IMG/VR virus record: IMGVR_UViG_2534681936_000014
Coordinates: 1-35,002 of that record
Reading direction: 5' to 3' (one strand)
Length of the DNA stretch: 35,002 bases
Source: a virus
Taxonomy: Duplodnaviria > Heunggongvirae > Uroviricota > Caudoviricetes
The notes beneath the pieces are model-generated. The model ran no database searches. It was not told the origin of the DNA and worked only from the letters and a program-made list of their open reading frames with translations. The position numbers and the translations under genes were made by a program. Positions 6,918 to 25,073 of the stretch are shown here, in pieces (the first letter of the stretch is position 1; each line of letters starts with the position of its first letter).

Positions 6918-6978
6918 TTTGGTGCATCCAGATTTGTCGGAAGAATATAGATGCGCTGAACTTTAAGCGCATGTGCAT

Positions 6979-7008: not shown

Positions 7009-7014
7009 AGAGAA

Positions 7015-7245: not shown

Positions 7246-7274
7246 TTTCTCCAAATTAAAGTGAATGTTCACCT

Positions 7275-7877: not shown

Positions 7878-7962
7878 ACAACCCCCTTTGATTAATACCC
7901 GTATTTATCAAAATATCAACAATTTAATAAATACCTTCCTATTTCGTAATGAGGGTAATTAC

Positions 7963-9870
7963 ATGAAACTGATTTCTAATAAGGCAAAATTAAAAAAGAT
8001 TCTCAGAAATGCAGCCAAATATATTACGCCACCGCCTAAACTCCTTCCGTCTGAATGGTGCGAAGCTAATATGGTGCTGGTAGATGGTCCTCAAGCTGGG
8101 GATAAAGTTAAATTGTTGTCATTCCAGAAAGGTATGATTGATGCTCCTTTCCTTGAGAACAAGAAAAAGTATGTCCTGATGACCAGTGCGCAGATCGGAA
8201 AAACTACCATCCTAAACGGTATCCTGTTTAACCAGATGGCTAACGATCCATGCAATATGATTATCGGACAATCAACCGCTAAAGAAATGTCTCAATATCT
8301 CGCTGGTAAGATCCGACCGTCTATCGAAGCATGTGATGCATTAAAAGACGTGGTTACAGACAAGAATGATCGCAATGCAGTTAACAACAATAACCAACTC
8401 CAGCTAAAAACGAATCACTTCCTGTACATGGTATCGCTTACCAGTCCATCAACCCTACGCGGTAAGACCGCAAAGGTTGGATTACTTGACGAAATCGATG
8501 CTGCCACAGCCTCAGAAGAAGGTGATCCGGTGGCACTGGCTGCTAACCGTTTAACTACCTTTGGCGATGAAGGTCGATTAGTCGTATCCAGTACCCCGAC
8601 CAGTAAGCTGGGAAGCATTAACCAGCAATGGTTATCAAGCGATATGCGTATGTTTTTTGTTCCGTGTCCTCATTGCGGGGAACACCAGGTGATCGAGTGG
8701 GAAAACGTACAGTTTGAATGGCGTAACATCGATGGTAAGAACTTACCCGATCCTGATACCGCTCGTTATATTTGCCCCCACTGTAAGAACGCATGGACCG
8801 AAGGGGAACGAATCAGGGCAGTAGCACAAGGCGAGTGGAGAGCAACCCGTGAAAGTGAAGTAGCCGGATTCTGGATCAGTCGTCTGTATTCACCTTTCAG
8901 CACGATCCGCGCTTGTGTGGTTGATTTTAGTCATGCGTGGCAATCCTTTGATTTACAATCATTTTATAACACCGTATTAGGCAAGGTATACGACGATCAG
9001 GACACGGCAGTAGAAGCAAATGAACTGGAACAACTCAAAACAGATGTTTCTATCGAGAATATCCCTGATGACGTGATTTTCTTGTGCTCAGGAATTGACC
9101 AGCAATTAGACCGCGCAGAGTCTACCATCTTAGGTGTAGCGAAAGATAAGGTTTACATTCTGGATCACCGCAGCTTTTACGATCATAACTGTGAACGATA
9201 TGAATCACCTGTTTGGGATCGTCTGGTTAACTTCAAGAAAACCAAATTCTATAACGTTAATGGTGAACGTGTGCCAATGCTCGCCAGCTTCCTTGATACA
9301 TCGAACGGTCGATTCACTCAAGCCGGATACCGTATTTGCGGCAAGTGGAAGAACCTACACGCTATCAAGGGTAGTTCATCTGGTAATGCTCCAGTAATTC
9401 CGGTTAAACCTACCCGCACAGGTGGTCATGAATTGCTTATGTTGGGTGTTAACGTTGGTAAATCCGCTGTTCGTGAAATGCTGGTTAGAAACCTGAAAGA
9501 CAATCCTCACATCGGCTTAGAAATATCAGAAACCGTTCCTGATGATTATCTCGATCAGCTTTTGAGTGAATCCATCAAGCGTACTACTACAGGTGTGCGT
9601 TGGGTGAAAAATCCAGGTAGTACCCGAAACGAGGCTCTCGACTGTCTGGTTTATAGCTATGCTGCTTCTCGCTACGTCCTTTCAAAAATGTCATGGGATA
9701 AACTCATTGCAATGAAAGACAGCTTAAACCGTGTTGTCGAAGAATCCGTAGAAGCTCCTAAATCGCAATCTGACGAGCAAATCGAAGAAACTAAGCCAAT
9801 CACACGACCGCAACGTCAAAACATCGCCAGACGCCCAAATAGAGGCCGTAGCTGGGTAACATCGTTCTAA
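7963..9870 (+). CDS. Terminase large subunit (GpA-like)
   Basis: 635 aa from ATG 7963 with GAGGGTAA RBS (ORF-track start 7888 is a TTG); Walker [12 protein letters not shown]; Cys-rich zinc-ribbon-like segments CPHCGEH...CPHCKNAW; size and gene order match a lambda-type large terminase. Confidence 0.88.
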
Positions 9871-9942
9871 TAACTCGCCGTCCTTCGGGGCGGCCTCCCC
9901 CTAAATATTGTTAATCCAATAACAATTAAATAAGGGGTAATT

Positions 9943-10437
9943 ATGAGTTTAGAACTAATTCCCTTAGTAATTCGTAAAGGCGAAAAAATCACGCTGGCGA
10001 ATGAAGAGGGTGTAACAATTCAGGTAGGAAATGGTAAAGGTATCATTTATCAGGTTGATGATACTCCGGCTAATCACGAGATTAAAACCTTAGATTTTGC
10101 CGAAGGTAAATATACCATCGTAATAACTTTGGAAGAAGAACTGGTATCAATGCAGGAATTAACTGTTTTGCCAGTATTCGCCAAACAATCCAAAAAAGAA
10201 TATCTGCGCGAAACGATTTCTGTAATCGAGCAAGTTATTTTCGCCAGGCTATCGGGGGACGAGGCCGCATTATCTCAAATGACAGTGAAAGGGAATACTT
10301 TCGCTTATGAGTCATTAGGTGTTCTCCAGCAATTAAAGACTGATTATGAACGTCAGTTATCAAAATTAATTCAAGCCGAACGACGTAAACAGGGAATTAG
10401 CCCGATTAAAAATATCAAATTACGTCTTACGCGATAA
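9943..10437 (+). CDS. Hypothetical head-associated protein (164 aa) between terminase and portal
   Basis: AAGGGGTAA RBS; position corresponds to the head-tail joining slot of lambda-like phages; no motif recognised. Confidence 0.5.
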   Translation: MSLELIPLVIRKGEKITLANEEGVTIQVGNGKGIIYQVDDTPANHEIKTLDFAEGKYTIVITLEEELVSMQELTVLPVFAKQSKKEYLRETISVIEQVIFARLSGDEAALSQMTVKGNTFAYESLGVLQQLKTDYERQLSKLIQAERRKQGISPIKNIKLRLTR

Positions 10438-10447
10438 GGGGTAAATC

Positions 10448-11959
10448 ATGTTTAATCTTTTTCGACGCAAAAAGGCGGTAGAAACTCCAGTTAAAACTAA
10501 TCACCGCCAGCAACAACCAAAAATTTTCATCGACAAACAAGTAGAAAAATTCCAGAAAGATTTGTCTAAGCGTTCTTTGGGCTTAGTAGGTGATCGCATT
10601 GATGGATCGCTTCAACAAGATACTATCACAGGAACCTTCAATAAGGCTCTCAAATCGAATGGTAAGCGCCTTTATGATCAGGGTCGTACTCTGGCCTTAA
10701 ACACTTCCGTAGGCAGTCGCTACACGCAATACATCACCGATATGGTGGTAGGTACTGGCCTAGATCCGAAGCCGTCAATCGTTAAATCAAATGGCACACT
10801 TGATAGCGCACTGAATAAGCAGATCGAGAATGCTTTCTGGAAGTGGGCGCAGAATGCTAAACGCTTCTCTCGTAACGGTCGCTTTAACTTCCGTGAACTG
10901 CTGGTAATGGCTGAACGTGAGCGCGTTATGGGTGGTGAGTGCTTCATCGTTTTAACCAAAGAAAACAATGAGTTAAATGTTTCTATCCTGTCTGCTGATA
11001 AATGCGACTGGTCGCTAAACCGTGAAGTAAGCAAAGAGCGTGCTATCTATCAGGGGATCGAGTATGACGTGGAAACGATGAAGCCCGTAGCATTCTGGTT
11101 TCGTAAAGTCAACCTACTGACTCAGACTTACACAGGTGATAACTATCGCGTAGATGCTTCGCAAGTATGCCATTATTATCAACCACTTGCGGCTGAATCT
11201 CTGCGTGGTGTGACTGACTTCCTACCAGTGATTAAGGATATCGCACATCAAGACGCATTCCGCGAAACTGCGATCATCCAGAAACGTATTGCAGCTAGCT
11301 CTATGGGCTTTATCGAACGTCCGAAAGATTCTGGTGACGATTTTGATACTGGTGAAGAGGATGAACAATATCAAGCGCCGGAAGTAGTACAGGATTTTGC
11401 ACCGGGTACTATTCAGGAATTGCCGGAAGGGGCAACGATCAGGAGCATCCAGGCGACGCAAAACGGTGATGACTTTAACAGCTTCAATGATGCGATGTTT
11501 ACTAGCGTATCAATGGGCTTAGGCGTGTTTAAACAGGGCTTAACGGGAGATTGTTCACAGATCAACTACTCAGCCGCACGTTTTGGTGAACTACTTCAAC
11601 GTAACCGCGTTAAAGCACTTCAAAACAAATTGATTGAAACAGTGGTGTTGCCAATTTTCGAAGCGTATCTGCGTCATTATTCCGCGCGTGGTGTTGTTCC
11701 GATTCGTATTACTGCAATTCCACATATTATCGATAACACTACTATTATCAGGCCACGTTTCGAGTCTGTCGATGTTATTAAAGACGTAAACGCTGATATT
11801 GCTTTAATTGATAAAGGACTTAAATCACGTACTGCCGTTATTCTTGAACGTGGTGATGATCCTGAAAAAGTATTCTCAGAGATTCAAGCCGAAAAGAGCG
11901 CACTAAATATTATCGTTGATGGTGAGGGTGAAGAAAAAAATTCCCCAGCCGATCCCTAA
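10448..11959 (+). CDS. Portal protein
   Basis: 503 aa directly downstream of the terminase block, AAGGGGTAA RBS, acidic C-terminus; size and position typical of lambda-family portal proteins. Confidence 0.8.
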   Translation: MFNLFRRKKAVETPVKTNHRQQQPKIFIDKQVEKFQKDLSKRSLGLVGDRIDGSLQQDTITGTFNKALKSNGKRLYDQGRTLALNTSVGSRYTQYITDMVVGTGLDPKPSIVKSNGTLDSALNKQIENAFWKWAQNAKRFSRNGRFNFRELLVMAERERVMGGECFIVLTKENNELNVSILSADKCDWSLNREVSKERAIYQGIEYDVETMKPVAFWFRKVNLLTQTYTGDNYRVDASQVCHYYQPLAAESLRGVTDFLPVIKDIAHQDAFRETAIIQKRIAASSMGFIERPKDSGDDFDTGEEDEQYQAPEVVQDFAPGTIQELPEGATIRSIQATQNGDDFNSFNDAMFTSVSMGLGVFKQGLTGDCSQINYSAARFGELLQRNRVKALQNKLIETVVLPIFEAYLRHYSARGVVPIRITAIPHIIDNTTIIRPRFESVDVIKDVNADIALIDKGLKSRTAVILERGDDPEKVFSEIQAEKSALNIIVDGEGEEKNSPADP

Positions 11960-12004
11960 TAACCAACGGGGGCGCAATGCCCCCAATTAATTAAAGGTGA
12001 TTAA

Positions 12005-14011
12005 ATGCTTAAATTTCGCCGCGATCTTAACGGTTACGGTGGGGTTATTAACGAAGGGCAGAATGATCAATACGAATTTGAAATTGCTTTCTCCAGTGAA
12101 CAGCCTTATCAGCGCCGATTCTGGGATGAGCAAAATCAAGAAATGGTGGTATTAGATGAAATTCTGGTACATACACCGGAAGCGGTTGATCTGTCTCGTC
12201 TGAATAATAACGCTCCGTTGCTGTTCAATCATATTTTCGATAATCACATTGGTGTCGTTTGTAACGCTCGAATCGATGCGGATAAAGTAGGCCGTGCGAC
12301 CGTTAGATTCTCTAAGCATGGCACTTTGGCTAATGATATTCGTAATAAAGTCATTGAAGGTACGATGGAAAAAATATCGGTCGGCTATGACATTAAAGAG
12401 TATCACATCGACTACGCTAAATCGCAACTCATTGTTTCTAAATGGATTCCTCACGAGGTTTCATGGGTGTCTGTTCCCGCAGACGACACCGTGGGTCTGA
12501 ATCGCTCTCTAAATACTATCACAGTTAATTTGGAGGCTAAACGCGATATGACTAAAGAACAAATCGAAGAAATCAAAGAAGAACAAGAAGCCGCTCAGGT
12601 TGAAGAAACTCCGGTAGAAGAAATTAAAGAACCGGAAGTAGAAGAAACTCAAGAGCGCCAAGTTGAAGAGAATAAAGAAGATGAAAATCTCGAAGACGGA
12701 AAAGACGCTGAACATCCTGAAAGTGTTGATGATGATAGTTCAACTGTTCGGGAAACAGAAGAAGTAAAAGAAGAACGTGAAGCCGCTCCGGTTGAAGAAG
12801 AAAAAATCGAAGAAGTGGCTGAACGTTCCGAAGAAGACGAAGAAGAAATCCGAGCAATCGCTCGTGAGTTAAATATTAACGACGAAGAATTAGAACGCGC
12901 ATTGGCAGTTAAAGATATGACGCCGGAAGCATTCCGCACTAAGGCACTAAATAACATTACCAATGCTCAACGTAATAACGAACAAATTAATAAGGAACAA
13001 ATCATGGAAAAAACTTTCGATCTTAATAACGTAATCCGCTCCCTGGTAGATGGCGACGTGCTCGGCGCTAACGAAGCTGAATATTCCGCTATGGCTGCTA
13101 CTGCAACTATGCAGCGTGGTCGTGCTGCTCGTGGTGGCTCTGTATTCGTTCCGGCTGCTGCTATGCGTGCTGCTGCTGCTGGTAACACCAAAGCTACTCT
13201 GGAAGCTATCACTGACGAAAAACTGATGACTGAATCCTACATCGAAATGCTGATGCCGGAATCTGTTCTGGGTCGTCTGGGTGTGACTGTTTACAGTGGC
13301 TTGAACTCCCCGACCGCTATTCCAAAAATGACTAAATCCAGCGTTGACGCTTTCGGCTTCGTTGATGAAAACGGCGCTGCACCGGAAAGCAAAGCTGAAT
13401 TTGCGAACGTGAAACTGTCTCCGAAAACTTTTGCTGGTGGCAACCCGATCAGCCGTCAGTCGCTGAAAACCGTTCCGGGTATCGCTTCCCTGATCACTGA
13501 TCACATTAACAAAGCTGTTCGTATCAAACTGGAACAACTGATTCTGTCTGACAAAGACAACGAGCGCGGTCCGGCTGGTCTGGTTAAGCAACTGGTTGAT
13601 GCAAGCCGTGTTACTAAGAAAGCCGCTTTCTCTTATAAAGACTTCCTGAAAGAAATTGCAGCACTGACCGACGCTGGCGTTCCTGCTCAGGCGATCAAGT
13701 TTGCAATGAGCGGTGCAACTGCTGCTGAACTGGAATCTACCCTGAAAGATAACGGCGTTTCCGGTTATATCATCGAAAACGGCAAACTGGCTGGTTACGA
13801 AGTAATTACTTCTGGCGTTATTCCGGCAGACCACATCGTTCTGGGTGACTTCTCCGGTATTACTATCGGTGAGTGGGGCGGTCTGGAACTGGATATGGAT
13901 CTAACTACATACCGTGACCGTGGTGCGGTAGTGCCTCGTATCTTTGTAGATTTGGACTACGTTGTAGCACAGCCGGAAGCTCTGAAAGTTCTTCACATCT
14001 CCGCTGAATGA
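12005..14011 (+). CDS. Prohead protease fused to major capsid protein (protease - acidic linker - capsid) in one ORF
   Basis: 668-aa uninterrupted frame; N-terminal about 170 aa with HK97-type prohead protease features (ISVGY...EVSWVSVPADDTVG); E-rich linker 12540-12900; C-terminal about 300 aa with strongly biased highly-expressed codon usage and capsid-like sequence; strong terminator downstream. Confidence 0.75.
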   Translation: MLKFRRDLNGYGGVINEGQNDQYEFEIAFSSEQPYQRRFWDEQNQEMVVLDEILVHTPEAVDLSRLNNNAPLLFNHIFDNHIGVVCNARIDADKVGRATVRFSKHGTLANDIRNKVIEGTMEKISVGYDIKEYHIDYAKSQLIVSKWIPHEVSWVSVPADDTVGLNRSLNTITVNLEAKRDMTKEQIEEIKEEQEAAQVEETPVEEIKEPEVEETQERQVEENKEDENLEDGKDAEHPESVDDDSSTVRETEEVKEEREAAPVEEEKIEEVAERSEEDEEEIRAIARELNINDEELERALAVKDMTPEAFRTKALNNITNAQRNNEQINKEQIMEKTFDLNNVIRSLVDGDVLGANEAEYSAMAATATMQRGRAARGGSVFVPAAAMRAAAAGNTKATLEAITDEKLMTESYIEMLMPESVLGRLGVTVYSGLNSPTAIPKMTKSSVDAFGFVDENGAAPESKAEFANVKLSPKTFAGGNPISRQSLKTVPGIASLITDHINKAVRIKLEQLILSDKDNERGPAGLVKQLVDASRVTKKAAFSYKDFLKEIAALTDAGVPAQAIKFAMSGATAAELESTLKDNGVSGYIIENGKLAGYEVITSGVIPADHIVLGDFSGITIGEWGGLELDMDLTTYRDRGAVVPRIFVDLDYVVAQPEALKVLHISAE

Positions 14012-14103
14012 AATAACGAAGAATTGCCGGAAGAAATTCCGGTAGTTACGGCGAAAGCCACAGCTAAAAAGGTGGGACGTCCACCGAAAGCAAAATAATA
14101 ATT

Positions 14104-14131
14104 AGCCCTGCCTAACGGTGGGGCTTTTTTG
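14104..14131 (+). terminator. Rho-independent terminator downstream of the capsid gene
   Basis: Hairpin AGCCC...GGGCT followed by TTTTTTG. Confidence 0.65.
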
Positions 14132-14160
14132 TATGTAAATACTCCATAAAGGGGGTAACT

Positions 14161-14451
14161 ATGTTCAAATTATCAGAATCACAATTAAATCGAATGTTTA
14201 AAAGTGCTCCTGTATTTTCGGTGGAAGGTGGTAAATCAATTCGTGCTTACCATGAAATTACTACTACCGACGAACAAGGGGTAATTACAGAATCAGAATT
14301 TCTATTTTGTCGTGAGGGAGACTTAAATCAGGGTGATGTTGTCATTGTAGACGGTGAACGCTTCAAAGTTCAATACGTTAAGCGCAATGGTGATAATACT
14401 TCTGATTGCTTTATTGCTCGTGCAGGGGGTACACATGCTCGCTACCGTTAA
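14161..14451 (+). CDS. Putative head completion / head-tail connector protein (96 aa)
   Basis: AAAGGGGGTAA RBS; position immediately after the capsid gene; assignment positional only. Confidence 0.5.
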   Translation: MFKLSESQLNRMFKSAPVFSVEGGKSIRAYHEITTTDEQGVITESEFLFCREGDLNQGDVVIVDGERFKVQYVKRNGDNTSDCFIARAGGTHARYR

Positions 14452-14857
14452 TAATATGCCTAGACTGAAAATCAAACGCGCCTTGCAGGATATTATCGAA
14501 CAAGATTTAGGTCTGGCTTTAAACGTAGAACAAACTCAGCAAGGCTTTAGTGATGACGTGGTTTGTTGGATTACCGGAATGAATGAGACTTATACGCGTG
14601 TTCGTGGTGGTAATGCAATGCAAGCTGAATGCGTTATCGAAATGCAGTTATATTCTCAGATTCATGAAACGAAAATTCATGAGGGTATTTGCCAGATAAT
14701 CCAGATTCAGCCGGATAACCCACGTTTTAAAGATTTGGGCTTCGCTATTTCAGATATCACTCCAGTAGCTTCTAATACCGATTATGACGATGATTCTAGT
14801 GATGGGGGTATCGTTGGGACACTTAGCCTTAAATTTTCTTATGTAGCGCGTTTTTAA
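14435..14857 (+). CDS. Putative head-tail joining / tail completion protein (140 aa)
   Basis: ATG at 14435 with AGGGGG RBS, overlapping the upstream gene by 17 nt (the ORF-track start at 14354 lacks an RBS); positional assignment. Confidence 0.5.
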   Translation: MLATVNNMPRLKIKRALQDIIEQDLGLALNVEQTQQGFSDDVVCWITGMNETYTRVRGGNAMQAECVIEMQLYSQIHETKIHEGICQIIQIQPDNPRFKDLGFAISDITPVASNTDYDDDSSDGGIVGTLSLKFSYVARF

Positions 14858-14866
14858 GGGGTAATA

Positions 14867-15700
14867 ATGAATATTACACAAGATAACTTAGACATTTTCA
14901 CGGGGTCGCATGTTGAAGTCTCCGTGTCTACTATGGTGGATAACCAGCCGGACTTTTTCGATCCTGCATTTAGTCCTATCGAGAACATCGCAGCATTCCC
15001 GACGATAACCGAATCTACAGAGATCCAGACGTTAGAAGAGTATGATCAGGACGCTACGGGGAAACTTGCTGGTTATCGTAAACTTGAATCAACTACGTTA
15101 GTAGTAAACCGTGTTCTGGATGACGAACATCAAGACATGTTGATGAAAGCGGTAGAGGATAAAACACCTTTACGCTTCCGAATGTTCTATGTTGTGAACT
15201 CTGGCTATAGTGCTGCTAACACTGGTTACTATGTCATCTATGATGCTTACGTCACATCACATAAAACCCGTGGTAGCGATAACAAAGCGGTAACACTGGA
15301 ATTTAAACTTGAACCAGATGGCGGGATTCTTGCAAGGGGTATCGCGACCGAGGGAAAAATTCTGCGACAAGGGGATTATGGCGTAGGCTCAGGCGTTAGC
15401 CCATTCATAGGTCCGATTGATAGCGAAGCATTAGCCGGAAACCGTTTCGTAACTTATCAGGGATCGAGCGCATCTAATCCATTTAGTGCTGATACTTCAC
15501 TAATTCACGTTCAACCTAATGACGATGGTGGATGGCAATTAACTTGCACCGCTTCCGGCGCACCACGTTTACGAGTTCGCACAGTCCAGAAAGACGGTAA
15601 TTCTGGATGGGTGAAAGTGTATTCCACGGAAGAAAAACCGACACCAGCCGAGATTGAAGCCGTTTCTATCCATGACCGGATCGACTTCGGGGAATACTGA
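14867..15700 (+). CDS. Virion structural protein (277 aa) with C-terminal Ig-like region carrying a KPTPAEI motif shared with the tail fiber
   Basis: AAGGGGTAA RBS; C-terminal EEKPTPAEIEAVSIH resembles GDKPTPAEIGAYSKAEID in the 15774 fiber; could be a tail-tube-with-Ig protein or a decoration protein. Confidence 0.5.
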   Translation: MNITQDNLDIFTGSHVEVSVSTMVDNQPDFFDPAFSPIENIAAFPTITESTEIQTLEEYDQDATGKLAGYRKLESTTLVVNRVLDDEHQDMLMKAVEDKTPLRFRMFYVVNSGYSAANTGYYVIYDAYVTSHKTRGSDNKAVTLEFKLEPDGGILARGIATEGKILRQGDYGVGSGVSPFIGPIDSEALAGNRFVTYQGSSASNPFSADTSLIHVQPNDDGGWQLTCTASGAPRLRVRTVQKDGNSGWVKVYSTEEKPTPAEIEAVSIHDRIDFGEY

Positions 15701-15723
15701 TTGCTTCTCTAAATAAAACATGA

Positions 15724-15760
15724 CGCGGGGAGGTTAACGCCTCCCTTATTCCTGTTTTAT
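15724..15760 (+). terminator. Hairpin (GGGAGG-TTAACG-CCTCCC) followed by T-rich tract; terminator or attenuator upstream of the fiber gene
   Basis: Read directly; followed by TTATTCCTGTTTT. Confidence 0.45.
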
Positions 15761-15773
15761 GTGAGGTGATTAG

Positions 15774-18700
15774 ATGCAATCAATCCAATTTAAACGAACT
15801 AATGTTTCTGGCAAAAAACCAACGCCGGAACAATTACAGGTCGGTGAGGTAGCAATCAACCTTAAAGACCATGTTATTTTTACCAAAGACCGAGATCATG
15901 AAGTAGTTCAAATCTCTGTTTCTCCTGAAACTCACGCGGCACTAGAATCTAAAGTTGATGCTAACAAACAAGAATTGGATAGCACAATTGCAGTAAATGA
16001 CCGCAATATTCACGCTAAAGTAGATGAAATTAAACAAACTACTGATTCTACTATCGCAGCAAATCATGCAGAAATTAACAATAAAGTTGATGTAATTAAA
16101 CGCGAAACCGACGCGACAATCGAAGCTAATAAAAATAAAGCTGCTTCCGATCTTGCTGGTGTTAAAGCTGAATTGTCGGATACCATCAACGCTAATAAAA
16201 ATGCGGCTGCTGTAGCAACTCAGGAACTGGACACCCGCATCAATAAAAAAGTTGATGATATTAAATCCCGTACTGATGCAACCATCGCAAGCAATCACAA
16301 AGCAATCAATGACAAAGTTGATTTGATTAAGGCAGAAACTGACCGCACTATCGCAGCAAATCAAGCCTATGCGGAAAATCAGTTAACTGACACCTACAAT
16401 AACCTTACTGGTGTGATTGCAGCTAATAAGCAAGAGGCAGCGGATAGCGTCGCAGCATTAACCCGTGATGTTGAAGCCAAAAATACAGCAATTCATAGCA
16501 AAATTGACAACAACAAGGTTTACACTGATTCTGAATTGGCACGCTTAGAAAGCCGTATTGATGCAGCCGATGGATCTGCTGATGGCAAGTACATCAAAAA
16601 ACACGTAAACACTTATACTGATGGTTATTTGCTGTCTAAGACCGCAAACTATTTTGATGATCCAAATGCGCGTAATCTTGATTACTTTGGTGCATTCCGC
16701 ATGAATGACCTGGCGGGTCATATTGCAATGATCTTGCATGTTCCGCATCCATCTGGTGTTAATCATGCTCGTGGCTTTGAGTTCACTTATGGGTCTAATC
16801 CACATGCTACTGTAAGAACATACGGCTATGATGAATTAGGTAATTTGTCATATTCTCACCGCATGTATCATGAAGGCGATAAACCTACTCCGGCTGAAAT
16901 TGGCGCATATTCGAAAGCAGAAATTGACCGACTGTTCCAGAAGACGCTTAATTTTGGGATCGAGGGTGGTTGGTTTAAACTCGGTAGTTTAACACTGCCA
17001 CAGCAACACGGTCGTAGTGCTAAGATCCGCTTAGTTGGTGGTAACGGTTATAACGTCGGGATGAATGGACAAGCCAATATTATCGAATTGGTGATTCGAT
17101 GCGGCAACAATAGCCCGAAAGGTGTTGTATTCAATGCTTATTATAGCATCTGGTATCACGAACAACATTTTTGTGCAATTCCTACCGATGGTGATAATTA
17201 CGATCTTTACGCTTACTACGGTGCACATACAGGATTTGTTTTAGCAGAATATCAAGTTTCTTCCGGTGGTGTTTCTTTAAACCTGTTGGATACTCCTGAA
17301 TATCTGGGTGGTGAAAAACCTGTTGCAGATGAAATTTTTGATGCTCTTAACATTTCATCGTTCAATAACTTTAGCAACCGTGGGACGTTAAATTTTGCTG
17401 GAAACCATCAAGGCCAATATGACATTGAGCATATGAACGAACAACAAACTAACAGCAAAAAGATGTTGCGTCGCTTCCGTAGTTCTGCTCCTGCCACTAT
17501 CTGGCACGAAAGTGTTGATGACCAAAATTATCGTCTTGCTACTGGTTATGACGATGTAAACCAACAATTATTGCTTTCGGCTGCAACCGGGTTACATGTC
17601 AAGAGATTAACATTGGATGGCGGTGTTGGTAATGCCGGTATTGACATTCGTCGAGGACCAAACGAATCAAGCCATTTTAATTTTATGGATTATCGCACTG
17701 GTCAAGATGTTCGTAATGGCTGGTTTGGTTTTGGTGATTTGACGACCAAAGATTTTATTTGGTGGAACGATAACGGCCAAAACTCGATAAACCTGATTGA
17801 AGATGGCGAGTTGCATATTACTGGTGGTAAAGGCCAGAAAATTGTAATGAATAGCGAAGTTGCATTATCCGAAAATGCTCGTTTGGCTGTCAAAGGCGGT
17901 AACTATGGTTTGATATTACGCAATGATGGTTCTAGCTTCCATATTCTTACTACCGATTTAAAAGATTCTTTTGGTAATTGGAATAATCGCAGACCATTCA
18001 GTTATGATTTTGCGGACGGTGGATTATATTTAGGTGGTACTGAAACTGCTCGTTGTTTGCATCTTGGAATTGATGGTAGCACTCGTCTCGAAGACAACCT
18101 GTTCTTTAAAGCTGGTTCTCGTCAATCTATGGACTATATGGAACTCGTCCATTGGGGTGCAAGCAATACAGGTCGAAATAACGTTTTAAGTCTTCGTGAC
18201 TCAAAAGGATTTTTAGCCGAATTTGAACGTCTATGGGATAATACTACCAAAAACACCTTCTTCGGGAAAATGAAAATTAATCGTGGATCTGATGCAATTA
18301 TCATGAATGCCGAAAGTGGTGATTCGTCTGTATATTTGTTGGGTACGTGTGCTGACAACAACAACTGGTATATTGGTAAAGGCGGTGGTGATAATGGATT
18401 AGCGTTCTATAGCTATGCTACTAATGCCGCGATAAATCTTACGAACGCTGGGGATATTGCATTAAGTCCAAAAGGCGTCGAAATGGTTCATGTTAATAAC
18501 GCTCGATTATATGTTCATGGTGAACGTTGGACCGCTAGTCAACCAGGTGATTGGGGTAATCAGTGGCGAGTGGAAGCGCCAATATTCGTCGATCATGGCT
18601 ATGTTGGACAAGACTGTTATTATCCGATTGTTAAAGCAAGAAGTTTAATCACCAATCAAGGGTATACAACTGCCGTCGATTTTGGTATGCGTCGTATCCC

Positions 18701-19199
18701 TAACAATTGGGGACAAGCAATTATTCGTGTTGGATCTGCGGAAAACTCACCTGATAACGGACACCCTCAAGCTGTATTTGAGTTCCATCACGATGGGTTC
18801 TTTTACACGCCGGGTAACGGTAGCTTTAACGATGTGCATATTCGATCTGATGAACGTCTTAAGATCAACAAGGAAGAATTGGAAGAAGGTGCGCTGGATA
18901 AATTAAACAGCTTAACCGTATATTCCTACGATAAAGTTAAATCACTTTCTGATGATACAGTGGTTGGACGCGAATTAGGTGTCATTGCTCAAGATGTGGA
19001 AAAAGTTATGCCGGAAGCTGTGCACGTTTGCAGCGATGGAGATACCGAAAATCCAGGAGAAATTAAAACTATTTCTGTTTCTAGTATCAATGCTCTTTTC
19101 GTGAAAGCCTTTCAGGAATTAACGACTAAGTATGATGCGATGAACGAAGAGTTGAAAGCTGTTAAAGCTGAACTTGCGGCTATTAAATCCTGTAAATGA
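15774..19199 (+). CDS. Tail fiber protein with C-terminal S74-type intramolecular chaperone (self-cleaving) domain
   Basis: 1141 aa; N-terminal shaft built from about 22-aa repeats (KVDxIKxxTDxTIAAN); C-terminal region ...SDERLKINKEELEEGALDKLNSLTVYSYDKV...GVIAQDVEKVMPEAVH... matches the signature of endosialidase / T5 L-shaped-fiber chaperone domains from memory. Confidence 0.85.
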   Translation: MQSIQFKRTNVSGKKPTPEQLQVGEVAINLKDHVIFTKDRDHEVVQISVSPETHAALESKVDANKQELDSTIAVNDRNIHAKVDEIKQTTDSTIAANHAEINNKVDVIKRETDATIEANKNKAASDLAGVKAELSDTINANKNAAAVATQELDTRINKKVDDIKSRTDATIASNHKAINDKVDLIKAETDRTIAANQAYAENQLTDTYNNLTGVIAANKQEAADSVAALTRDVEAKNTAIHSKIDNNKVYTDSELARLESRIDAADGSADGKYIKKHVNTYTDGYLLSKTANYFDDPNARNLDYFGAFRMNDLAGHIAMILHVPHPSGVNHARGFEFTYGSNPHATVRTYGYDELGNLSYSHRMYHEGDKPTPAEIGAYSKAEIDRLFQKTLNFGIEGGWFKLGSLTLPQQHGRSAKIRLVGGNGYNVGMNGQANIIELVIRCGNNSPKGVVFNAYYSIWYHEQHFCAIPTDGDNYDLYAYYGAHTGFVLAEYQVSSGGVSLNLLDTPEYLGGEKPVADEIFDALNISSFNNFSNRGTLNFAGNHQGQYDIEHMNEQQTNSKKMLRRFRSSAPATIWHESVDDQNYRLATGYDDVNQQLLLSAATGLHVKRLTLDGGVGNAGIDIRRGPNESSHFNFMDYRTGQDVRNGWFGFGDLTTKDFIWWNDNGQNSINLIEDGELHITGGKGQKIVMNSEVALSENARLAVKGGNYGLILRNDGSSFHILTTDLKDSFGNWNNRRPFSYDFADGGLYLGGTETARCLHLGIDGSTRLEDNLFFKAGSRQSMDYMELVHWGASNTGRNNVLSLRDSKGFLAEFERLWDNTTKNTFFGKMKINRGSDAIIMNAESGDSSVYLLGTCADNNNWYIGKGGGDNGLAFYSYATNAAINLTNAGDIALSPKGVEMVHVNNARLYVHGERWTASQPGDWGNQWRVEAPIFVDHGYVGQDCYYPIVKARSLITNQGYTTAVDFGMRRIPNNWGQAIIRVGSAENSPDNGHPQAVFEFHHDGFFYTPGNGSFNDVHIRSDERLKINKEELEEGALDKLNSLTVYSYDKVKSLSDDTVVGRELGVIAQDVEKVMPEAVHVCSDGDTENPGEIKTISVSSINALFVKAFQELTTKYDAMNEELKAVKAELAAIKSCK
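15952..16380 (+). repeat. Intragenic tandem repeats, about 66-bp period, encoding the fiber shaft
   Basis: Successive units starting near 15952, 16018, 16084, 16249 and 16315 all begin AAAGTxGATG...ATTAAA...ACxGA. Confidence 0.6.
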
Positions 19200-19287
19200 T
19201 ATAAATGGGGGGAACACCCCCATTTAACTAAATAAATAGAATTACGGGCATGTACCCTATTGTTTAAAAAATAGAAGGAAAAGAATA

Positions 19288-19758
19288 ATGACTACTAAAT
19301 TTGATATTTTCTCTGGTGGCCTCGTTGGTCTGTTTCTGCAAGAAGATGTAGCTAACGTTGATCTTGACGCTGAAACTTATCTGGAAATTCCAGAATGCGC
19401 AGCGTTCCCGGAAACTGGTGTAGAACGTTCTACTATCGATGTTCCTAACTTCTCTGGTGCTTATAACCGTAAGCTGGTTGGTCGTATGTCTGTACCGGAT
19501 ATCGAACTTTCGATCAACTACATGCCGGGTAACGAAGTACACGAAAAACTGATTAAAGCAACCGAAGACGGTAAGCGCGTACAGCTTAAAATTGCTTACT
19601 ACATCGATGCTACGAAAAAATCTGGTGTACATATCGCTTATAACGGCTTCCTGTCTAAAACTACCATGACTGGTGGTGAGGATGCTGTAGTAGGCCGTAC
19701 CTTCACCTTTGTAGTAGATGGTGCTCCGGTTAAACAAGCTGTTTTCCAGAAAGTCTAA
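19288..19758 (+). CDS. Major tail (tube) protein
   Basis: 156 aa; highly biased highly-expressed codon usage; immediately upstream of the chaperone pair and tape measure gene; strong terminator directly after. Confidence 0.65.
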   Translation: MTTKFDIFSGGLVGLFLQEDVANVDLDAETYLEIPECAAFPETGVERSTIDVPNFSGAYNRKLVGRMSVPDIELSINYMPGNEVHEKLIKATEDGKRVQLKIAYYIDATKKSGVHIAYNGFLSKTTMTGGEDAVVGRTFTFVVDGAPVKQAVFQKV

Positions 19759-19767
19759 TATTATCTA

Positions 19768-19795
19768 GCCATCCTTCGGGGTGGCTTTTTTGTTT
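19768..19795 (+). terminator. Rho-independent terminator (AGCCATCC-TTCG-GGGTGGCT then T7)
   Basis: Read directly after the tail tube gene. Confidence 0.75.
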
Positions 19796-19840: not shown

Positions 19841-20149
19841 ATGAATATTAATGAAATGTTAGCCGCACTCTCTCCGAAACGCGAATCTCTGACCATCGGT
19901 GGATTTACTTTCTATGCTCGCCCTATGTCAGTAAAAGAATTTAATGAACATGTTTTCAATACCGATAAAGAAGACCGTGATGAACGTTCTATTCTTCGTT
20001 GTATTGAAGATGAAGATGGTAAGCCAGTATTTGAATCTATGGAACAAGTTAAAGCACTGTATACTAACGTCCGCAGTGAATTAATCGGTTTAGTTGCTCA
20101 AGCGTCATTGATGCAAGATCCGGCAGTAATTGAAAACGAGGTAAAGTAA
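19841..20149 (+). CDS. Tail assembly chaperone (lambda G-like)
   Basis: 102 aa; AGAGGAAA RBS; located between the tail tube and tape measure genes. Confidence 0.6.
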   Translation: MNINEMLAALSPKRESLTIGGFTFYARPMSVKEFNEHVFNTDKEDRDERSILRCIEDEDGKPVFESMEQVKALYTNVRSELIGLVAQASLMQDPAVIENEVK

Positions 20150-20178
20150 ACCCGCTTCTGAATTTCTATTTCCGGCAA

Positions 20179-20520
20179 ATGATGAGATCGGGGCTTAGTA
20201 AAGATGAAATGGATAATATGCCAATCACTCTGTTTTGGAAATTATACATTTTCGACACCTACTTAGAACCACAAAGCCCCGCGTTTCATGATATGCAGAA
20301 TGCGATGTTGCAATATTCCATGTATATGACTTCGCAAGGAATGACACGCGAAACTGCACGCAAACTCAAGCCTAGCCAATTCCAATTAATTAGAGAAGAA
20401 AAACTCTTTAAAACTAAAGAAGAACTGGAAGAAATTGCACGCAAGAAAGAAGAAGAACGTAAAGCGGCAATGCTGAACATGTTTGATCCATCTTTGCTTG
20501 AGAAACTCAGAAGCGGTTAA
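20179..20520 (+). CDS. Tail assembly chaperone extension (lambda T-like), probably made as a frameshift fusion with the upstream ORF
   Basis: 113 aa in the -1 frame relative to 19841-20149; this frame is open from 20134, overlapping the upstream stop; no RBS before ATG 20179. Confidence 0.5.
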   Translation: MMRSGLSKDEMDNMPITLFWKLYIFDTYLEPQSPAFHDMQNAMLQYSMYMTSQGMTRETARKLKPSQFQLIREEKLFKTKEELEEIARKKEEERKAAMLNMFDPSLLEKLRSG

Positions 20521-20531: not shown

Positions 20532-22961
20532 ATGACAAAACATATAGTAACAATAGAAGGGGATAATAAAGGTCTAAGGAGAAGTACCAATGAAGCCGCT
20601 AACCTTCTAGATAGTTTGTCTGAAAAGGCAAGTAATATTGATTTTGGCGGTGGTTTATCTGGTTTGACTGGATCTCTTCGTGGGATCGCTGGCTCTGCTG
20701 GTTTGGCTGCTGGTGGTATCGGCTTAGTTGCGACCGCAGTTTTTGCAGCCGCTAAAGCTGGCGCGGAATACGTTAAACAGTATTCAGAAGTATCTAAGGC
20801 GACCGGACTATCGATTGAATCCCTTCAAAGACTGGAAAAGGAATTTTCTGGCACTGGCTTAACAGTTGAAAAATTTGGTGATATCAACAAAGACACCTTA
20901 GACAAGATGGGTGATGCATGGGCTAACGGTGGTGGTATTGCCGATGATTTAGAATCGGTTGGCCTTAAGTTAGAAAACTATGCTCACTTCATGACCGATC
21001 CGCAAGGTGGTATGAAAGCGGCGATCCAAGTGTTCTATGACATGAAGAAAGCCGGAAAATCAATGGCTGAAATCAAGTTCATGATGGAATCTTTAGCCAG
21101 TGATTCAAGCCATATGACCAGCCAGCTTGAGAAATATAATAGTGCTCAAGAGGCGATGATCGCTATTCAGAATCAATCTGTTAACGTCACCGAAGAAAAC
21201 GCTAAAAAATATGATAAATTTTCTCAAAATATCAATAAGCTGGAAAATAACCTGAAAGGTGTCGGTATGACCATTACTGGTCCGCTGGTTGATAGTTTAA
21301 ACTGGTTATTCGAATGGTTTAATATTGATTGGGAAAAGAGTTCTCTATTCAGGGCATTAGACCGACTGAATAAAGAAGGCAAGACCGCAACTGGCGGTAT
21401 TCTTAACGCCAACCATAAAGACGCTCAAAAGATTATTGACAAGTACAATAAAGAAAAGCGTTGGAATAATCTGGCAGATTGGGAAAAGGCCGCGATCCGT
21501 GGTGCTGGTGTTGATCCTCGTACTGCTGGCTTTGATGTTGAAGGATTTAAGAAACGTTTTGGTGATTCTTATAAGAAAAATGGCTCTCTGATTGTTGTCG
21601 ATAACGGGGAACATCTAACCCGCAAGGCAGATCCTAACCGTGATTTGACTATCCCGACTACACCAACTCGACCAGCTTCATTGGGTAAGTCTGGCAACGA
21701 GAAGAAAGCCGAGGAAGAAGCCAAAAAGAAAGCGGAAGAGGCAGCTAAAAAGGCTAAGGAAGCCGCAGAAAAAGCACAGAAAGCACGCGAGGATGCAATC
21801 AAGCGACTGAATGCACTTGATGTTAAATTGCAAGGGCAAGTTGCAGCGTCTATCACTTCTCAAAATAGCCAGTTGCAAAACAGCTTAAAAGATGTGAACG
21901 ACGCGTTAGCTCTGGGCTTAATCTCTCAGGAAGACGCAGCCGCGAAACGCCAGGCGCTAATCGATCAGAATACTGAAAACGTTTATAAAATGATGTTGGG
22001 TGCTGATCCGATTGATGCTCTGAATGCTTTAACACAATTGCAACAAATCAGGGACAACGAGCTAGAAAGCCATAAACGGTTACTTGATGGTAAAGCTATC
22101 TCCTACGAAGAATATATGCGTCGTGTGAACGATACCGAGCAAAACTATTCTCAGATTGAAAATTCTTTACAGGGAATGGATGGTTATAAAACCAATCAAT
22201 TAACTAGTGGTTATGATTATCAAGACTCAAATAATCCGTTTGCTAAATTTAATGCAATCGATAAAGAGAAATCGGAAGCGGAACAAGATTATAAGACCGA
22301 TAAACTCAAGATTGATGGGATCACCGATCCGGCTAAACGGATGGTAGCATTAGAAAAACTCAATGAAAACCATCAAAAACGAATGGCTGCAATTGAGAAG
22401 AAATATGCTGATGCTCGCCAGTCAATAGCTGATGATATGTACGGCGGTTTTGCTGCTGCAATGACTCTCTTCGGGCAGGAAAACACTAAAGCAATGCAGA
22501 TGGCTTTCAATGCTCATAAAGCATTCTCCATTGGACAAGCGACGGTGAACATGTGGACGGCTGCTACCGATGCATGGAACGATCCGACCAACGTAACCAC
22601 AGGACAAAAAATCGCTGCTGCTGCATTGGCTGTTTCTCAGAACATGGGAAACATCGCAAACATCAAGTCTACTAACGTTAGCGGTATGGCTCATGATGGT
22701 ATCGATAACATCCCGCGTGAGGGTACATGGTTACTTGACAAGGGCGAGAGGGTTATAGATCAACGCACCAACGGTGATTTAAAAGATTTCCTTGCTAATA
22801 ATAAAGCAGGAAACTATAACTCTCAGCCGATTGAAGTTAATGCGCCTTTGAACATTAACGGCAACGTTAATAGCTCAGACAAGATGGTCATGGATGCTAT
22901 CAAACGTCACGCTAAGTTAGTTGCGCAGCATGTAGAAGACGTTCAGCGTCGTAAGATGTAA
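20532..22961 (+). CDS. Tail tape measure protein
   Basis: 809 aa; AAAGGGGTAA RBS; Gly/Ala-rich N-terminal hydrophobic segment; long helical, charged middle region (KKAEEEAKKKAEEAAKKAKEAAEKAQKARE); position after the G/T pair. Confidence 0.85.
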   Translation: MTKHIVTIEGDNKGLRRSTNEAANLLDSLSEKASNIDFGGGLSGLTGSLRGIAGSAGLAAGGIGLVATAVFAAAKAGAEYVKQYSEVSKATGLSIESLQRLEKEFSGTGLTVEKFGDINKDTLDKMGDAWANGGGIADDLESVGLKLENYAHFMTDPQGGMKAAIQVFYDMKKAGKSMAEIKFMMESLASDSSHMTSQLEKYNSAQEAMIAIQNQSVNVTEENAKKYDKFSQNINKLENNLKGVGMTITGPLVDSLNWLFEWFNIDWEKSSLFRALDRLNKEGKTATGGILNANHKDAQKIIDKYNKEKRWNNLADWEKAAIRGAGVDPRTAGFDVEGFKKRFGDSYKKNGSLIVVDNGEHLTRKADPNRDLTIPTTPTRPASLGKSGNEKKAEEEAKKKAEEAAKKAKEAAEKAQKAREDAIKRLNALDVKLQGQVAASITSQNSQLQNSLKDVNDALALGLISQEDAAAKRQALIDQNTENVYKMMLGADPIDALNALTQLQQIRDNELESHKRLLDGKAISYEEYMRRVNDTEQNYSQIENSLQGMDGYKTNQLTSGYDYQDSNNPFAKFNAIDKEKSEAEQDYKTDKLKIDGITDPAKRMVALEKLNENHQKRMAAIEKKYADARQSIADDMYGGFAAAMTLFGQENTKAMQMAFNAHKAFSIGQATVNMWTAATDAWNDPTNVTTGQKIAAAALAVSQNMGNIANIKSTNVSGMAHDGIDNIPREGTWLLDKGERVIDQRTNGDLKDFLANNKAGNYNSQPIEVNAPLNINGNVNSSDKMVMDAIKRHAKLVAQHVEDVQRRKM

Positions 22962-23011: not shown

Positions 23012-23572
23012 ATGTTCAAATCCAAGAATATTAAAATCACAGATTTTACTCTTAAATCAAAACAGCCTTTCTTCAAGGCGCAATCTATCTCCGGTAAGTT
23101 CCAGCGTCGCTTTACTGGCATTCATTTTTATGAAGCAGAATTTACAGCTAATTTCATGGCTCAGGATATTAACGAAGTAAAAGAATTTGTAGCACGTCAC
23201 CTTTTTGGTCGTCCTTTCAATGTGCCACTGTCTTACTTTTCAAAATATACAGGTGATGTACGCCAGATGGTTACGGCTGCTGCTGGTACTGCTCGCGGTG
23301 GGCGTAAGGTGAGAATCTCCAACTTCACCGGAACACTGAAAGCAGGAACTATCATCCAGTTTGAGAACCACAAGAAAATCTACACGATCACCGAAGACGT
23401 GAAATCAGGTGGCGAAATGAAACTCTTCCCTAACTTGCGTCAGAACGTCTTGGCGGGTGAGGTGATCAAGTATCAGAACGTAGAAGGTGAATTTGTTCTC
23501 AAAACTGAAAACATCGATTGGAAGATCGCCCAGATCGGCAAGATGAAATTTGAATTAGTGGAGAATGTATAA
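23012..23572 (+). CDS. Minor tail protein (tail-tip component, lambda M/L region equivalent)
   Basis: 186 aa, first gene after the tape measure gene; positional assignment. Confidence 0.5.
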   Translation: MFKSKNIKITDFTLKSKQPFFKAQSISGKFQRRFTGIHFYEAEFTANFMAQDINEVKEFVARHLFGRPFNVPLSYFSKYTGDVRQMVTAAAGTARGGRKVRISNFTGTLKAGTIIQFENHKKIYTITEDVKSGGEMKLFPNLRQNVLAGEVIKYQNVEGEFVLKTENIDWKIAQIGKMKFELVENV

Positions 23573-24225
23573 TGGCAACTATTCAGGAATCATTCAGCAA
23601 ACTATGCACTAATCTGGACTTCATCGAGGTATACAACGACCAGACAGGTCAGAATGTGTCTAGATTGACTCTACCGCAGCTTTTCTCCACTGGATCGATG
23701 TTTCACATTATCGAAGTAGTAACCGCGTCAGGGGACGTTCTACGGCTTACAGATGGGTACTTCGATTTGGACTATAACGGTTTTACGTATCTTGCAACGG
23801 GTGACTTTCTTCAAATCTCATCGAATACCGAAGAGAAGGAGATCAACAACAACGGGATCAACGTAACTGTTTCTAACGTCCGCGAAGAATACATTACCTT
23901 GATTCGAAACAAGCAATTCGATAAATCAGATGTGAAAATCGAGATGGTTTTCCTTAACCCTAACACGGGCAAGGTTGAAACTACTTACCCTGTTTTCCGT
24001 GGGGTAGTCGATTCCATCGGGATTAACATCGAACATGAAGATGATGAGTGTAAAAACGAATCAGAATTTCAGCTTAATAGTATCTGGGAAGTTCTAGATA
24101 AAAACGCTCGTAGTCATGCCTCTGATGGTATCCACCGATCATATGCTGGAAACGAGAACGATCTATTCTTCTCAAGGGCGGGTCGCTGGTTATCGGAAAG
24201 CAAGTGGCATTCGTCTAAAAAATAA
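23572..24225 (+). CDS. Minor tail protein (tail-tip component)
   Basis: 217 aa; start overlaps the upstream stop (TAATG); positional assignment. Confidence 0.5.
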   Translation: MATIQESFSKLCTNLDFIEVYNDQTGQNVSRLTLPQLFSTGSMFHIIEVVTASGDVLRLTDGYFDLDYNGFTYLATGDFLQISSNTEEKEINNNGINVTVSNVREEYITLIRNKQFDKSDVKIEMVFLNPNTGKVETTYPVFRGVVDSIGINIEHEDDECKNESEFQLNSIWEVLDKNARSHASDGIHRSYAGNENDLFFSRAGRWLSESKWHSSKK

Positions 24226-24299: not shown

Positions 24300-25073
24300 A
24301 TGCGAAAATTCCATTACGTTTATCACACCACTATTAAATCTAATCGCTCTGGTAAAATCTATCATTACGTCGGAAAAAGAACAACTACAAATCTAGACGA
24401 TGGATATGTGGGGTCGGGTAAAGTTATTAAAATGATGAAGCGTAAAAATAAAGAATCAGAAACCCCGATATATGAATTTGAAGTTGTTCGCTCAAAATTG
24501 TTTGATACTGCCGAGGAAGCGTTTGAATGTGAAATTCTGTTAGTGGAGGCAGCACGCGAAAAATGGGGGCGTGGTGTATGTCTTAATATTGCTCCTGGTG
24601 GTGTCGGTGGTTTTGATGGTGGTGAACATCACCCACTGTACGGAAAGAAACATAAGCCAGAAACAATCGAGAAATTTAGAAAGAACAACGCAGGTGAAGG
24701 AAACCCGATGTTTGGACGGGTAAGCCCAAAACGAGGAAGGAAGATAACTAATCCAGAAACGTTAGCTAAAATGTCCGCTGCAATGAAAGGCGCTAATAAT
24801 CCTCGATACGGCGCAATAGTCACCGAAGAAACACGCGCAAGAATTAGTAAGGCTTTATCTGGTCGAAAGATTACCGATCCTGTAGAAAAGGCTAACAGAA
24901 CTAAAGCAATTAGGGAATCGAAAGGTCAAGCATGTTGGCAACATTACGATGAAATTCGTCGTGTGTGGATCGAAAACGGTAAGCCCGGCGCGGCAAGATT
25001 ACGAACAATCATGATTGGCTTAGGCCATCCAAAATATGATCTTCGTAGAATGTGCGAAGACTTCAAGAAATAA
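24300..25073 (+). CDS. GIY-YIG homing endonuclease with NUMOD3-like repeats
   Basis: 257 aa; N-terminal HYVYHT...GKIYHYVGKRTT...GYVGSGK and FECEIL align with the I-TevI catalytic-domain pattern (GIYQIKN...VYVGSA...FECSIL) from memory; three G-x-x-H/NP-x-[YF]G-x-x-x-x-x-E-T-x-x-K-[IM]S repeats (HPLYGKKHKPETIEKF, NPMFGRVSPKRG...PETLAKMSAAM, NPRYGAIVTEETRARISKAL). Confidence 0.8.
   Translation: MRKFHYVYHTTIKSNRSGKIYHYVGKRTTTNLDDGYVGSGKVIKMMKRKNKESETPIYEFEVVRSKLFDTAEEAFECEILLVEAAREKWGRGVCLNIAPGGVGGFDGGEHHPLYGKKHKPETIEKFRKNNAGEGNPMFGRVSPKRGRKITNPETLAKMSAAMKGANNPRYGAIVTEETRARISKALSGRKITDPVEKANRTKAIRESKGQACWQHYDEIRRVWIENGKPGAARLRTIMIGLGHPKYDLRRMCEDFKK

Follow-up and report, generated by a model that had tools for sequence, protein, structure and literature searches.

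This study was concerned with two adjacent genes in a 35,002-nucleotide (nt) stretch of DNA from a virus of the Caudoviricetes, positions 1 to 35,002 of IMG/VR record IMGVR_UViG_2534681936_000014. The whole stretch is referred to here as the window. One gene (14867-15700) encodes a protein of 277 amino acids (aa), called the anchor in this report, and the other (15774-19199) encodes a fiber protein of 1141 aa. The two proteins probably form a two-piece tail fiber, with a spare tail-tube domain serving to attach it to the tail. The folds, homologies, synteny and domain swaps described below were all obtained as tool results. An earlier note on this DNA, made from its letters, had suggested that the two proteins form a module, possibly a head or neck fiber or a relocated side fiber. 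The module was upheld, and the link is more specific than the heptapeptide on which the note had relied: a tube paralogue with a gp36-like connector is followed by a fiber with a gp37-type N-terminus. The earlier note missed that three quarters of the fiber is near-identical to gp37 of the T4-like Krischvirus phages.

The anchor, the fiber and the joint between them

The anchor consists of a tail-tube-fold domain at residues 7-164 (14885-15358, + strand), a Gly-rich linker at residues 165-192, and a knob with a gp36-like C-terminal connector at residues 193-277 (15443-15697, + strand), which ends in ...KVYSTEEKPTPAEIEAVSIHDRIDFGEY. Both the anchor and the 156-aa tube protein matched the major-tail-protein family phrog_158, which was the only PHROG match of the anchor. 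When the families of the two proteins were compared profile to profile, the match had a probability of 99.3% (E-value (E) 5e-20), and residues 7-164 of the anchor aligned with the entire tube protein. The identity between the two proteins is about 21%. Direct BLASTP did not detect the relationship of the anchor to the 156-aa tube protein at a significant level (E 2.5), and profile-profile comparison was required. Structure prediction, a check that the earlier note had suggested, was run for the 277-aa protein with AlphaFold2 (AF2), and the outcome was favorable in part: the model is confident at residues 13-160, and the remainder is taken up below among the points that count against our interpretation. 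Because of the profile-profile match and the AF2 model, the 277-aa protein is identified as an extra tail-tube paralogue; it also has the gp36-like C-terminal connector. The gene for the major tube protein is expected just before the G/T chaperone genes, and that place is taken by the gene for the 156-aa protein and not by the anchor gene.

Other identities were considered for the anchor. A role as tail terminator was rejected; the 140-aa protein encoded upstream fills that role, and the anchor did not qualify as the sole candidate with a terminator fold (lambda gpU / T5 p142). A PDB match named "putative neck whiskers protein gp24" of phage Sf11 was followed as a lead to a neck location and set aside, as this protein is simply the tube protein of Sf11. 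The PDB sequence search with the anchor profile was empty, no protein of the module matched NCBIfam, and a profile search of genome contigs with the anchor alignment gave no match.

The open reading frame (ORF) of the fiber is intact, with an ATG start and the Shine-Dalgarno sequence GAGGTGA. Residues 1-49 (15774-15920, + strand) form a gp37-type N-terminal connector, MQSIQFKRTNVSGKKPTPEQLQVGEVAINLKDHVIFTKD, and residues 50-265 (15921-16568, + strand) form a helical shaft of 22-residue (2 x 11) repeats. Residues 283-1024 (16620-18845, + strand) form a gp37-like distal body with a presumed receptor-binding tip. Residues 1025-1141, together with the stop codon (18846-19199, + strand), form an S74 intramolecular chaperone domain. 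The repetitive shaft of about 66 base pairs (bp) per period, noted previously, was recovered as a 22-aa repeat by autocorrelation. With the BLOSUM62 matrix, the autocorrelation of residues 50-265 was highest at lag 22 (0.88, against a top value of 0.22 in 1000 shuffles), with extra peaks at 33, 44 and 55, which are also multiples of 11. The DNA identity in the shaft was highest at lag 66 (0.45), and the 66-bp period corresponds to the 22-aa protein repeat. Tandem Repeats Finder did not detect the 66-bp array, whose repeats are too diverged, and the period is visible only by autocorrelation. A sub-threshold Pfam match to Apolipoprotein, a 22-mer repeat, at residues 79-247 reflects the same periodicity. 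The autocorrelation suggests a coiled coil of the hendecad type.

The S74-type domain at the C-terminus, also noted previously, was identified by Pfam (PF13884, residues 1025-1084, E 1.6e-14, 54.4 bits against a cutoff of 22). The domain begins with an S-x4-K dyad, Ser1025 and Lys1030 in SDERLK; this Ser/Lys spacing is taken from endoNF and T5 pb1. The Pfam match and the dyad are features of the S74 fibers and spikes of the K1F endosialidase and T5 pb1 type. In addition, the S74 end matched the C-terminus of phage S16 gp37 in the PDB (6f45). Self-cleavage before Ser1025, with release of the S74 chaperone, is predicted.

Most of the remaining fiber sequence is related to gp37, the distal long-tail-fiber subunit of the RB49-like, T4-related myoviruses (Krischvirus). 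Fiber residues 283-1117 have 78% aa identity to residues 69-898 of gp37 of Escherichia phage MIZ4 (Krischvirus), and the identity to gp37 of a second Krischvirus phage, KFS-EC, is 77%. The DNA identity to Krischvirus gp37 genes is 82-86% over positions 16637-18940 of the window. The fiber body matched phrog_1699 (E 3e-113), with a Pfam Gp34_trimer match at residues 644-744. By tblastn, residues 1-50 aligned at 30-40% identity with the gp37 N-termini of over 1000 T4-like phage records, and the N-terminus MQSIQFKRTNVSGKKPTPEQLQVGEVAINLKDHVIFTKD is also gp37-like by eye when placed beside gp37 of T4, MIZ4 and KFS-EC. Because both residues 283-1117 and the first 50 or so residues are gp37-like, the fiber is a gp37 over its whole length, into which about 215 residues of coiled coil are inserted after the N-terminal connector. 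No homologue of gp34 or gp35 was found among the gene products scanned.

The C-terminus of the anchor is the putative counterpart of this gp37-type N-terminus. Its last 28 residues are 43% identical (12 of 28) to gp36 of MIZ4 in a co-terminal alignment (E 9e-5, pairwise). The anchor ends in KVYSTEEKPTPAEIEAVSIHDRIDFGEY and the Krischvirus gp36 in EIYHEGHKPTPDEVGAVPLNAVIDFGTF; T4 gp36 ends in ...VQDFGYY and the anchor in ...KPTPAEI...IDFGEY. In all relatives and in T4, MIZ4 and KFS-EC, the upstream protein has the ending ...[IV]D[FL]G-x-x, which differs slightly in a few of them, and a gene with a gp37-type N-terminus, in most cases of the pattern (I/K)xFKR...GE[IL]AIN..D, follows within 8-76 nt. 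Full-length homology of the anchor to gp36 (phrog_1425 or phrog_16472) was not found, and the link is indirect, through the database protein P0189. In this protein the anchor knob (36% identity, E 1e-15) is joined to a body of the gp36 family (phrog_1425, E 4e-12), and its end is ...EIDFGTY. Biochemical work on T4 has shown that the gp36 trimer attaches to gp37 at its N-terminal region (PMC3004832). Because the anchor C-terminus is gp36-like, P0189 bridges the two families, and T4 gp36 binds that region of gp37, the two prophage genes thus appear to reproduce the gp36-to-gp37 joint, with gp36 cut down to a stub on a tube domain.

The motif KPTPAEI, which the earlier note had found in both proteins, is encoded exactly twice in the window (15635-15654 and 16881-16900), with different codons, and did not occur at all in any of 100 shuffles. 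The similarity extends past the motif: anchor residues 193-277 are 31% identical over 83 aa to the first knob of the gp37-like region of the fiber (E 9e-4, pairwise).

Relatives, gene order and fiber exchange

A full HMMER scan for anchor homologues gave at least 137 protein clusters at 50% identity, which are of two kinds. Those of the first kind are proximal subunits of 342-1209 aa with a tube domain, knob and shaft, nearly all of which end in ...[IV]D[FL]G-x-x or a close variant. Those of the second kind are single-chain fibers of about 700-1560 aa with an N-terminal tube domain and knob, many with an S74-type coiled-coil end. For example, Leclercia, Rouxiella and Kluyvera have distant relatives in which the tube domain, the knob and the fiber (many with an S74-like end) make up a single chain of 877-1560 aa, encoded at the same place in the genome. 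Members were named from Hafnia, Obesumbacterium, Serratia, Rouxiella, Kluyvera and Leclercia, with closer ones from Salmonella, Shigella, Providencia, Edwardsiella and Proteus. The distant fused fibers were too diverged for their alignment to seed a locus search. Some relatives have a very long proximal subunit; P0086 of Serratia quinivorans (1209 aa), for instance, has a tube domain, a knob, about 1000 aa of gp36/gp34-like "KPT" modules and a connector ending in ...FDEGTF. Very long proximal subunits such as this one imply two-segment fibers that would be far longer than that of the window.

Synteny with related phages, a comparison that the earlier note had called for, was analyzed in 53 viral contigs, of which 46 carry close or moderately related anchors and seven are from a distant lineage with identities of mostly 26-43% in the structural proteins. 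In 53 of 53 the capsid gene is followed by a terminator-like ORF, the anchor gene (separate from the fiber gene or fused with it), and then tube, G, T, tape measure, Dit, hub and tip. This agrees with the gene order in the window, where the fiber gene was confirmed to lie upstream of the tube, chaperone and tape measure genes. Because the same order is found throughout, including the forms in which anchor and fiber are fused in a single gene between terminator and tube, the position of the fiber is read as ancestral for the family. A recent relocation, and with it the relocated side fiber proposed previously, is ruled out on these comparisons.

Members of the E. coli group fall into two allelic types, between which the anchor C-domain and the fiber N-terminus swap together, with identities of either 96-100% and 94-100% or 65-69% and 72-78%, respectively. 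The anchor tube domain (87-100%) and the terminator (97-100%) are constant across these types. A second allelic group of relatives has an extra ORF of 168 aa between the tube and G chaperone genes (locus L016, 15111-15617, + strand); its tube protein is about 58% identical to that of the window, and its terminator and chaperones are more than 90% identical.

The exchange boundaries are inside the fiber ORF, at about positions 15967, 16637 and 18229 of the window, and not at the hairpins that flank it. The distal three quarters of the fiber gene were clearly gained by horizontal transfer from T4-like phages. Some sister prophages contain three tandem paralogous ORFs of about 100 aa, with the motif FDIPNGW, between the fiber and tube genes (locus L006, 14310-15216, + strand; locus L003, 6598-6921, + strand). 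These ORFs are not present in the window, and may encode fiber accessory or adhesin proteins. The first of them shares 92% identity with the ORF that comes right after the gp37 gene of the Krischvirus phage KFS-EC, which shows that exchange with Krischvirus phages is continuing.

Among 50,697 deposited phage records, an anchor homologue was found only once, in "Escherichia phage DCP80" (PQ671644.1, 141 kilobases (kb)), which is classified in the T4-like genus Gaprivervirus. Positions 1-18560 of this record are syntenic with the prophage family from the terminase to the tape measure, and encode an anchor homologue of 698 aa and a fiber of 745 aa. The record is probably a chimeric assembly or includes a contaminating contig.

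Assembly, position on the tail and rival explanations

Ring stoichiometry, docking, cleavage and tail position are what we infer from these results, as follows. The N-terminal tube-paralogue domain of the anchor would enter the stack of tail rings as a hexamer. The flexible Gly-rich linker would let three neighboring C-terminal domains trimerise into a short stub equivalent to T4 gp36, and one hexameric ring would carry two stubs, hence two fibers. The C-terminus of the stub (...KPTPAEI...IDFGEY) would dock the gp37-type N-terminus of the fiber, as trimeric gp36 docks gp37 in T4. The fiber would trimerise with the aid of the S74 chaperone, which would then cut itself off before Ser1025, and this cleavage would expose a gp37 tip of the Krischvirus type, for binding to a receptor on the E. 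coli surface. Through such a tip the phage may bind its host reversibly, in addition to the action of the J-like tip protein. With its coiled coil of about 215 residues, the fiber would be lengthened to an estimated total of about 75 nm, against a tail of about 120 nm.

The anchor ring is placed, as a tentative first choice, at the head-proximal end of the tube just beneath the terminator. This position is favored because the anchor gene always directly follows the terminator gene (with a gap of 9 nt in the window) and is inherited with it. A wider proposal is possible but on balance doubtful, namely that a family of temperate Enterobacterales siphophages of about 30-38 kb carries its receptor-binding fibers on a dedicated tube-paralogue ring directly under the terminator, as long neck-anchored fibers, two per hexamer (a 6-to-3 adaptation), with a gp36/gp37-type plug for T4-like tips. 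Of the head or neck fiber in the earlier note, the head part found no support, as the anchor domain is folded like a tube protein rather than like a capsid-binding domain; the neck part may hold.

Several results weigh against these proposals. The C-terminal half of the AF2 model of the anchor is of low confidence, with a predicted local distance difference test (pLDDT) score below 50 at residues 163-239. The gp36 similarity is short and was not significant in a database-wide BLAST search, in which DCP80 was the only match, and the gp36 link rests on a pairwise alignment, position and one bridging sequence. That the anchor C-domain and the fiber N-terminus vary together comes down to two allelic types of adjacent DNA, which genetic linkage alone could yield. 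Adjacency to the terminator gene is circumstantial for the position of the ring, and a hexamer feeding trimers would give an unusual two fibers per ring. Also, if a fiber of about 75 nm hung from the neck of a tail of about 120 nm, it would end short of the tip, and this speaks for a distal ring.

The reach of the fiber leads to the main rival explanation, in which the same two-piece fiber and tube-domain anchor are retained and the ring is the first above Dit. The fibers would then be conventional side tail fibers at the tip, comparable to T5 p140 and its collar with L-shaped fibers. This is rather unlikely, since the anchor gene adjoins the terminator gene and precedes the tube gene in 53 of 53 relatives and is never beside the Dit or hub genes, and since the anchor tube domain and the terminator are co-inherited while the tube gene is swapped. 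The T5 p140 gene lies beside the Dit gene, whereas the prophage anchor gene lies beside that of the terminator, which is also set against a distal ring. Alternatively, the 277-aa protein might co-polymerise with the 156-aa tube protein at many positions, so that fibers are displayed along the whole tail. This would be like the major-tail-protein extensions SPP1 gp17.1*, lactococcal 936 TpeX and the immunoglobulin (Ig) domains of lambda gpV, except that the fibers would be long. The anchor is a genuine tube paralogue across the full length of the tube protein, and there is good documentation that tube proteins can be decorated by C-terminal extensions (PMC6669499). However, an identity of only about 21% makes mixed rings unlikely, and a tail that bears dozens of 1141-aa trimers would come at a very high cost. 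In addition, T-run hairpin attenuators are found after the capsid and 156-aa tube genes but not after the anchor gene. Co-polymerisation is thus considered very unlikely.

The hairpins also bear on a third rival, in which the fiber gene is a cassette with hairpins at its borders that was inserted or relocated recently and has no functional relation to the 277-aa protein. The fiber would then attach to another part of the virion, such as the tip protein or the capsid. The hairpins that the earlier note had placed on both sides of the fiber gene are real. One is between the anchor and fiber genes (15715-15758, core 15727-15746, + strand; -18.5 kcal/mol, z -2.3) and has no strong T-run, and the other follows the fiber gene (19202-19226, + strand; -16.6 kcal/mol, z -3.7). 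Because similar hairpins, with T-runs, follow the capsid gene (14104-14125) and the tube gene (19767-19786), they mark no special cassette and look like ordinary inter-gene attenuators or stabilisers. The clear horizontal acquisition of the distal three quarters of the gene would fit an inserted cassette, but the exchange boundaries are within the ORF, the position is kept family-wide, the fiber is fused to the anchor in distant members, and no capsid-binding or tip-binding domain was detected. Insertion of an unrelated cassette is therefore so improbable that it is nearly dismissed, and a tube-domain anchor for the fiber is preferred. Separately, the T-run hairpins, which are strong, follow the genes for the two products required in the highest copy number.

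Genomic context, significance and comparison with known systems

The window is approximately a complete prophage of 35 kb. It is 100% identical to a region in E. coli O55:H7 DEC5A and FDAARGOS_946, and the insertion site in DEC5A is the hicB antitoxin gene, which is split by the prophage (locus L001, 3948-39240). The prophage carries a large serine recombinase of 564 aa (31828-33522, - strand). The guanine-plus-cytosine content is about 41% throughout the window, well under the E. coli average, and very few recognisable regulatory or replication genes were annotated in the left 7.8 kb. Related prophages were found in 59 of 5426 complete E. coli genomes. The prophage backbone had no match at the DNA level among deposited phage genomes, and the nearest characterised phages, R4C, RcCronus, phiHAP-1 and VP882, have a capsid identity of only about 30%.

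The virion genes are of the siphophage type, with tube, G/T chaperones, tape measure, Dit and J-like tip. The late genes begin with the terminase (7888-9870), head-tail joining protein (9943-10437) and portal (10448-11959). A protease-capsid fusion of 668 aa, with an S78 prohead protease and an HK97-type capsid protein (12005-14011, + strand), is followed by an FII-like protein (14161-14451) and the 140-aa tail terminator (14435-14857, + strand), directly upstream of the anchor gene. The terminator stop codon is 9 nt before the anchor start and overlaps the anchor Shine-Dalgarno sequence. After the anchor and fiber genes (both on the + strand), the 156-aa major tail tube protein (19288-19758, + strand) was identified by phrog_158 (E 1.6e-19), weak Pfam matches to lambda-type tubes and the RefSeq name "phage tail tube protein." The G/T chaperones (19841-20520) and the tape measure (20532-22961) come next, followed by a tail-tip module with Dit, the hub (23572-24225), DUF6950 (25120-25539) and the J-like tip protein (25539-29285). 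A NUMOD3-type homing endonuclease gene (24300-25073, + strand; phrog_314, E 1.6e-25) is located between the hub and DUF6950 genes. This gene looks like a mobile insertion because the hub and DUF6950 genes are adjacent, overlapping or 9 nt apart, in the seven distant relatives examined.

S74 fibers, the mosaicism of T-even and lambdoid fibers, and decorated tube proteins are already known, and the locus is not a new principle of biology. In the library searched, no description was found of a tube-paralogue fiber anchor, nor of the gp36/gp37 joint outside T4-like phages. Anchoring by a tube paralogue is apparently a conserved and undescribed way of mounting a fiber on a phage tail. At this locus a tube-protein domain would be used as a fiber anchor, and the T4 gp36/gp37 joint would be reused outside T4-like phages as a portable connector. 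The locus also documents recent flow of fiber genes (82-86% DNA identity) between virulent T4-like phages, which are used in therapy, and a family of E. coli prophages; in sister prophages the exchange takes in the small downstream gene that is 92% identical. Fiber attachment decides which fibers are carried, and hence which hosts can be reached. These points bear on the engineering of host range and on attempts to foresee how resident prophages can gain or pass on specificity. If the proposal of a neck ring and plug is true, prophages could take fiber tips directly from virulent T4-like phages.

The closest known system is the T4-type gp36 and gp37 pair (Krischvirus/RB49-like, with S74). The likeness includes the gp37 body (78%), the S74 end, the connector IQFKR...GE.AINL.D, the ...KPTP.E...IDFG.. 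tail of the upstream protein and the same order of adjacent genes. The prophage differs in that it has no gp34, gp35, contractile tail or baseplate, and the host genome of the module is that of a 35-kb temperate siphophage. Also, the gp36 body is down to about 85 residues fused to a tube domain, and a coiled coil of about 215 residues is added.

Decorated major tail proteins (MTPs), such as lambda gpV with its Ig domain, SPP1 gp17.1* and lactococcal 936 MTP/TpeX, are similar in that a tube fold carries an outward C-terminal adhesion module (PMC6669499). However, the prophage anchor is a separate, diverged paralogue and not the major tube protein or a frameshift product, and where those proteins carry a monomeric Ig or carbohydrate-binding domain, its appendage would be a stub on which a 1141-aa trimeric fiber docks. 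The neck passage structure (collar and whiskers) of the lactococcal 936 and P335 phages is similar in being an accessory fiber whose N-terminal domain forms a ring and whose distal part is a binding module. It has a trimeric coiled-coil shaft of about 250 residues and is proposed to be located at the neck; its anchor is a BppU-like beta-sandwich that forms an 18-mer, and its tips are carbohydrate-binding modules (PMC6669499). The anchor domain of the prophage has no BppU-like N-terminal beta-sandwich, its fold being of the tube type. No S74 domain or gp36/gp37 joint is described in the neck passage structure, unlike the prophage module, and it may thus be regarded as a functional analog with a different anchor fold. 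In T5, the L-shaped fiber pb1 binds a separate collar protein (p132) and not the tube-like p140 itself, which is a trimer with duplicated tube domains.

Lastly, lambda Stf is a fiber of a temperate E. coli siphophage that shares modules with T-even gp37, and is a classic case of fiber gene exchange. The stf gene follows the tip gene J, and the Stf fiber is located at the tip and needs the Tfa chaperone. In contrast, the prophage fiber gene precedes the tube gene, its putative anchor is a tube paralogue, and its chaperone is intramolecular.

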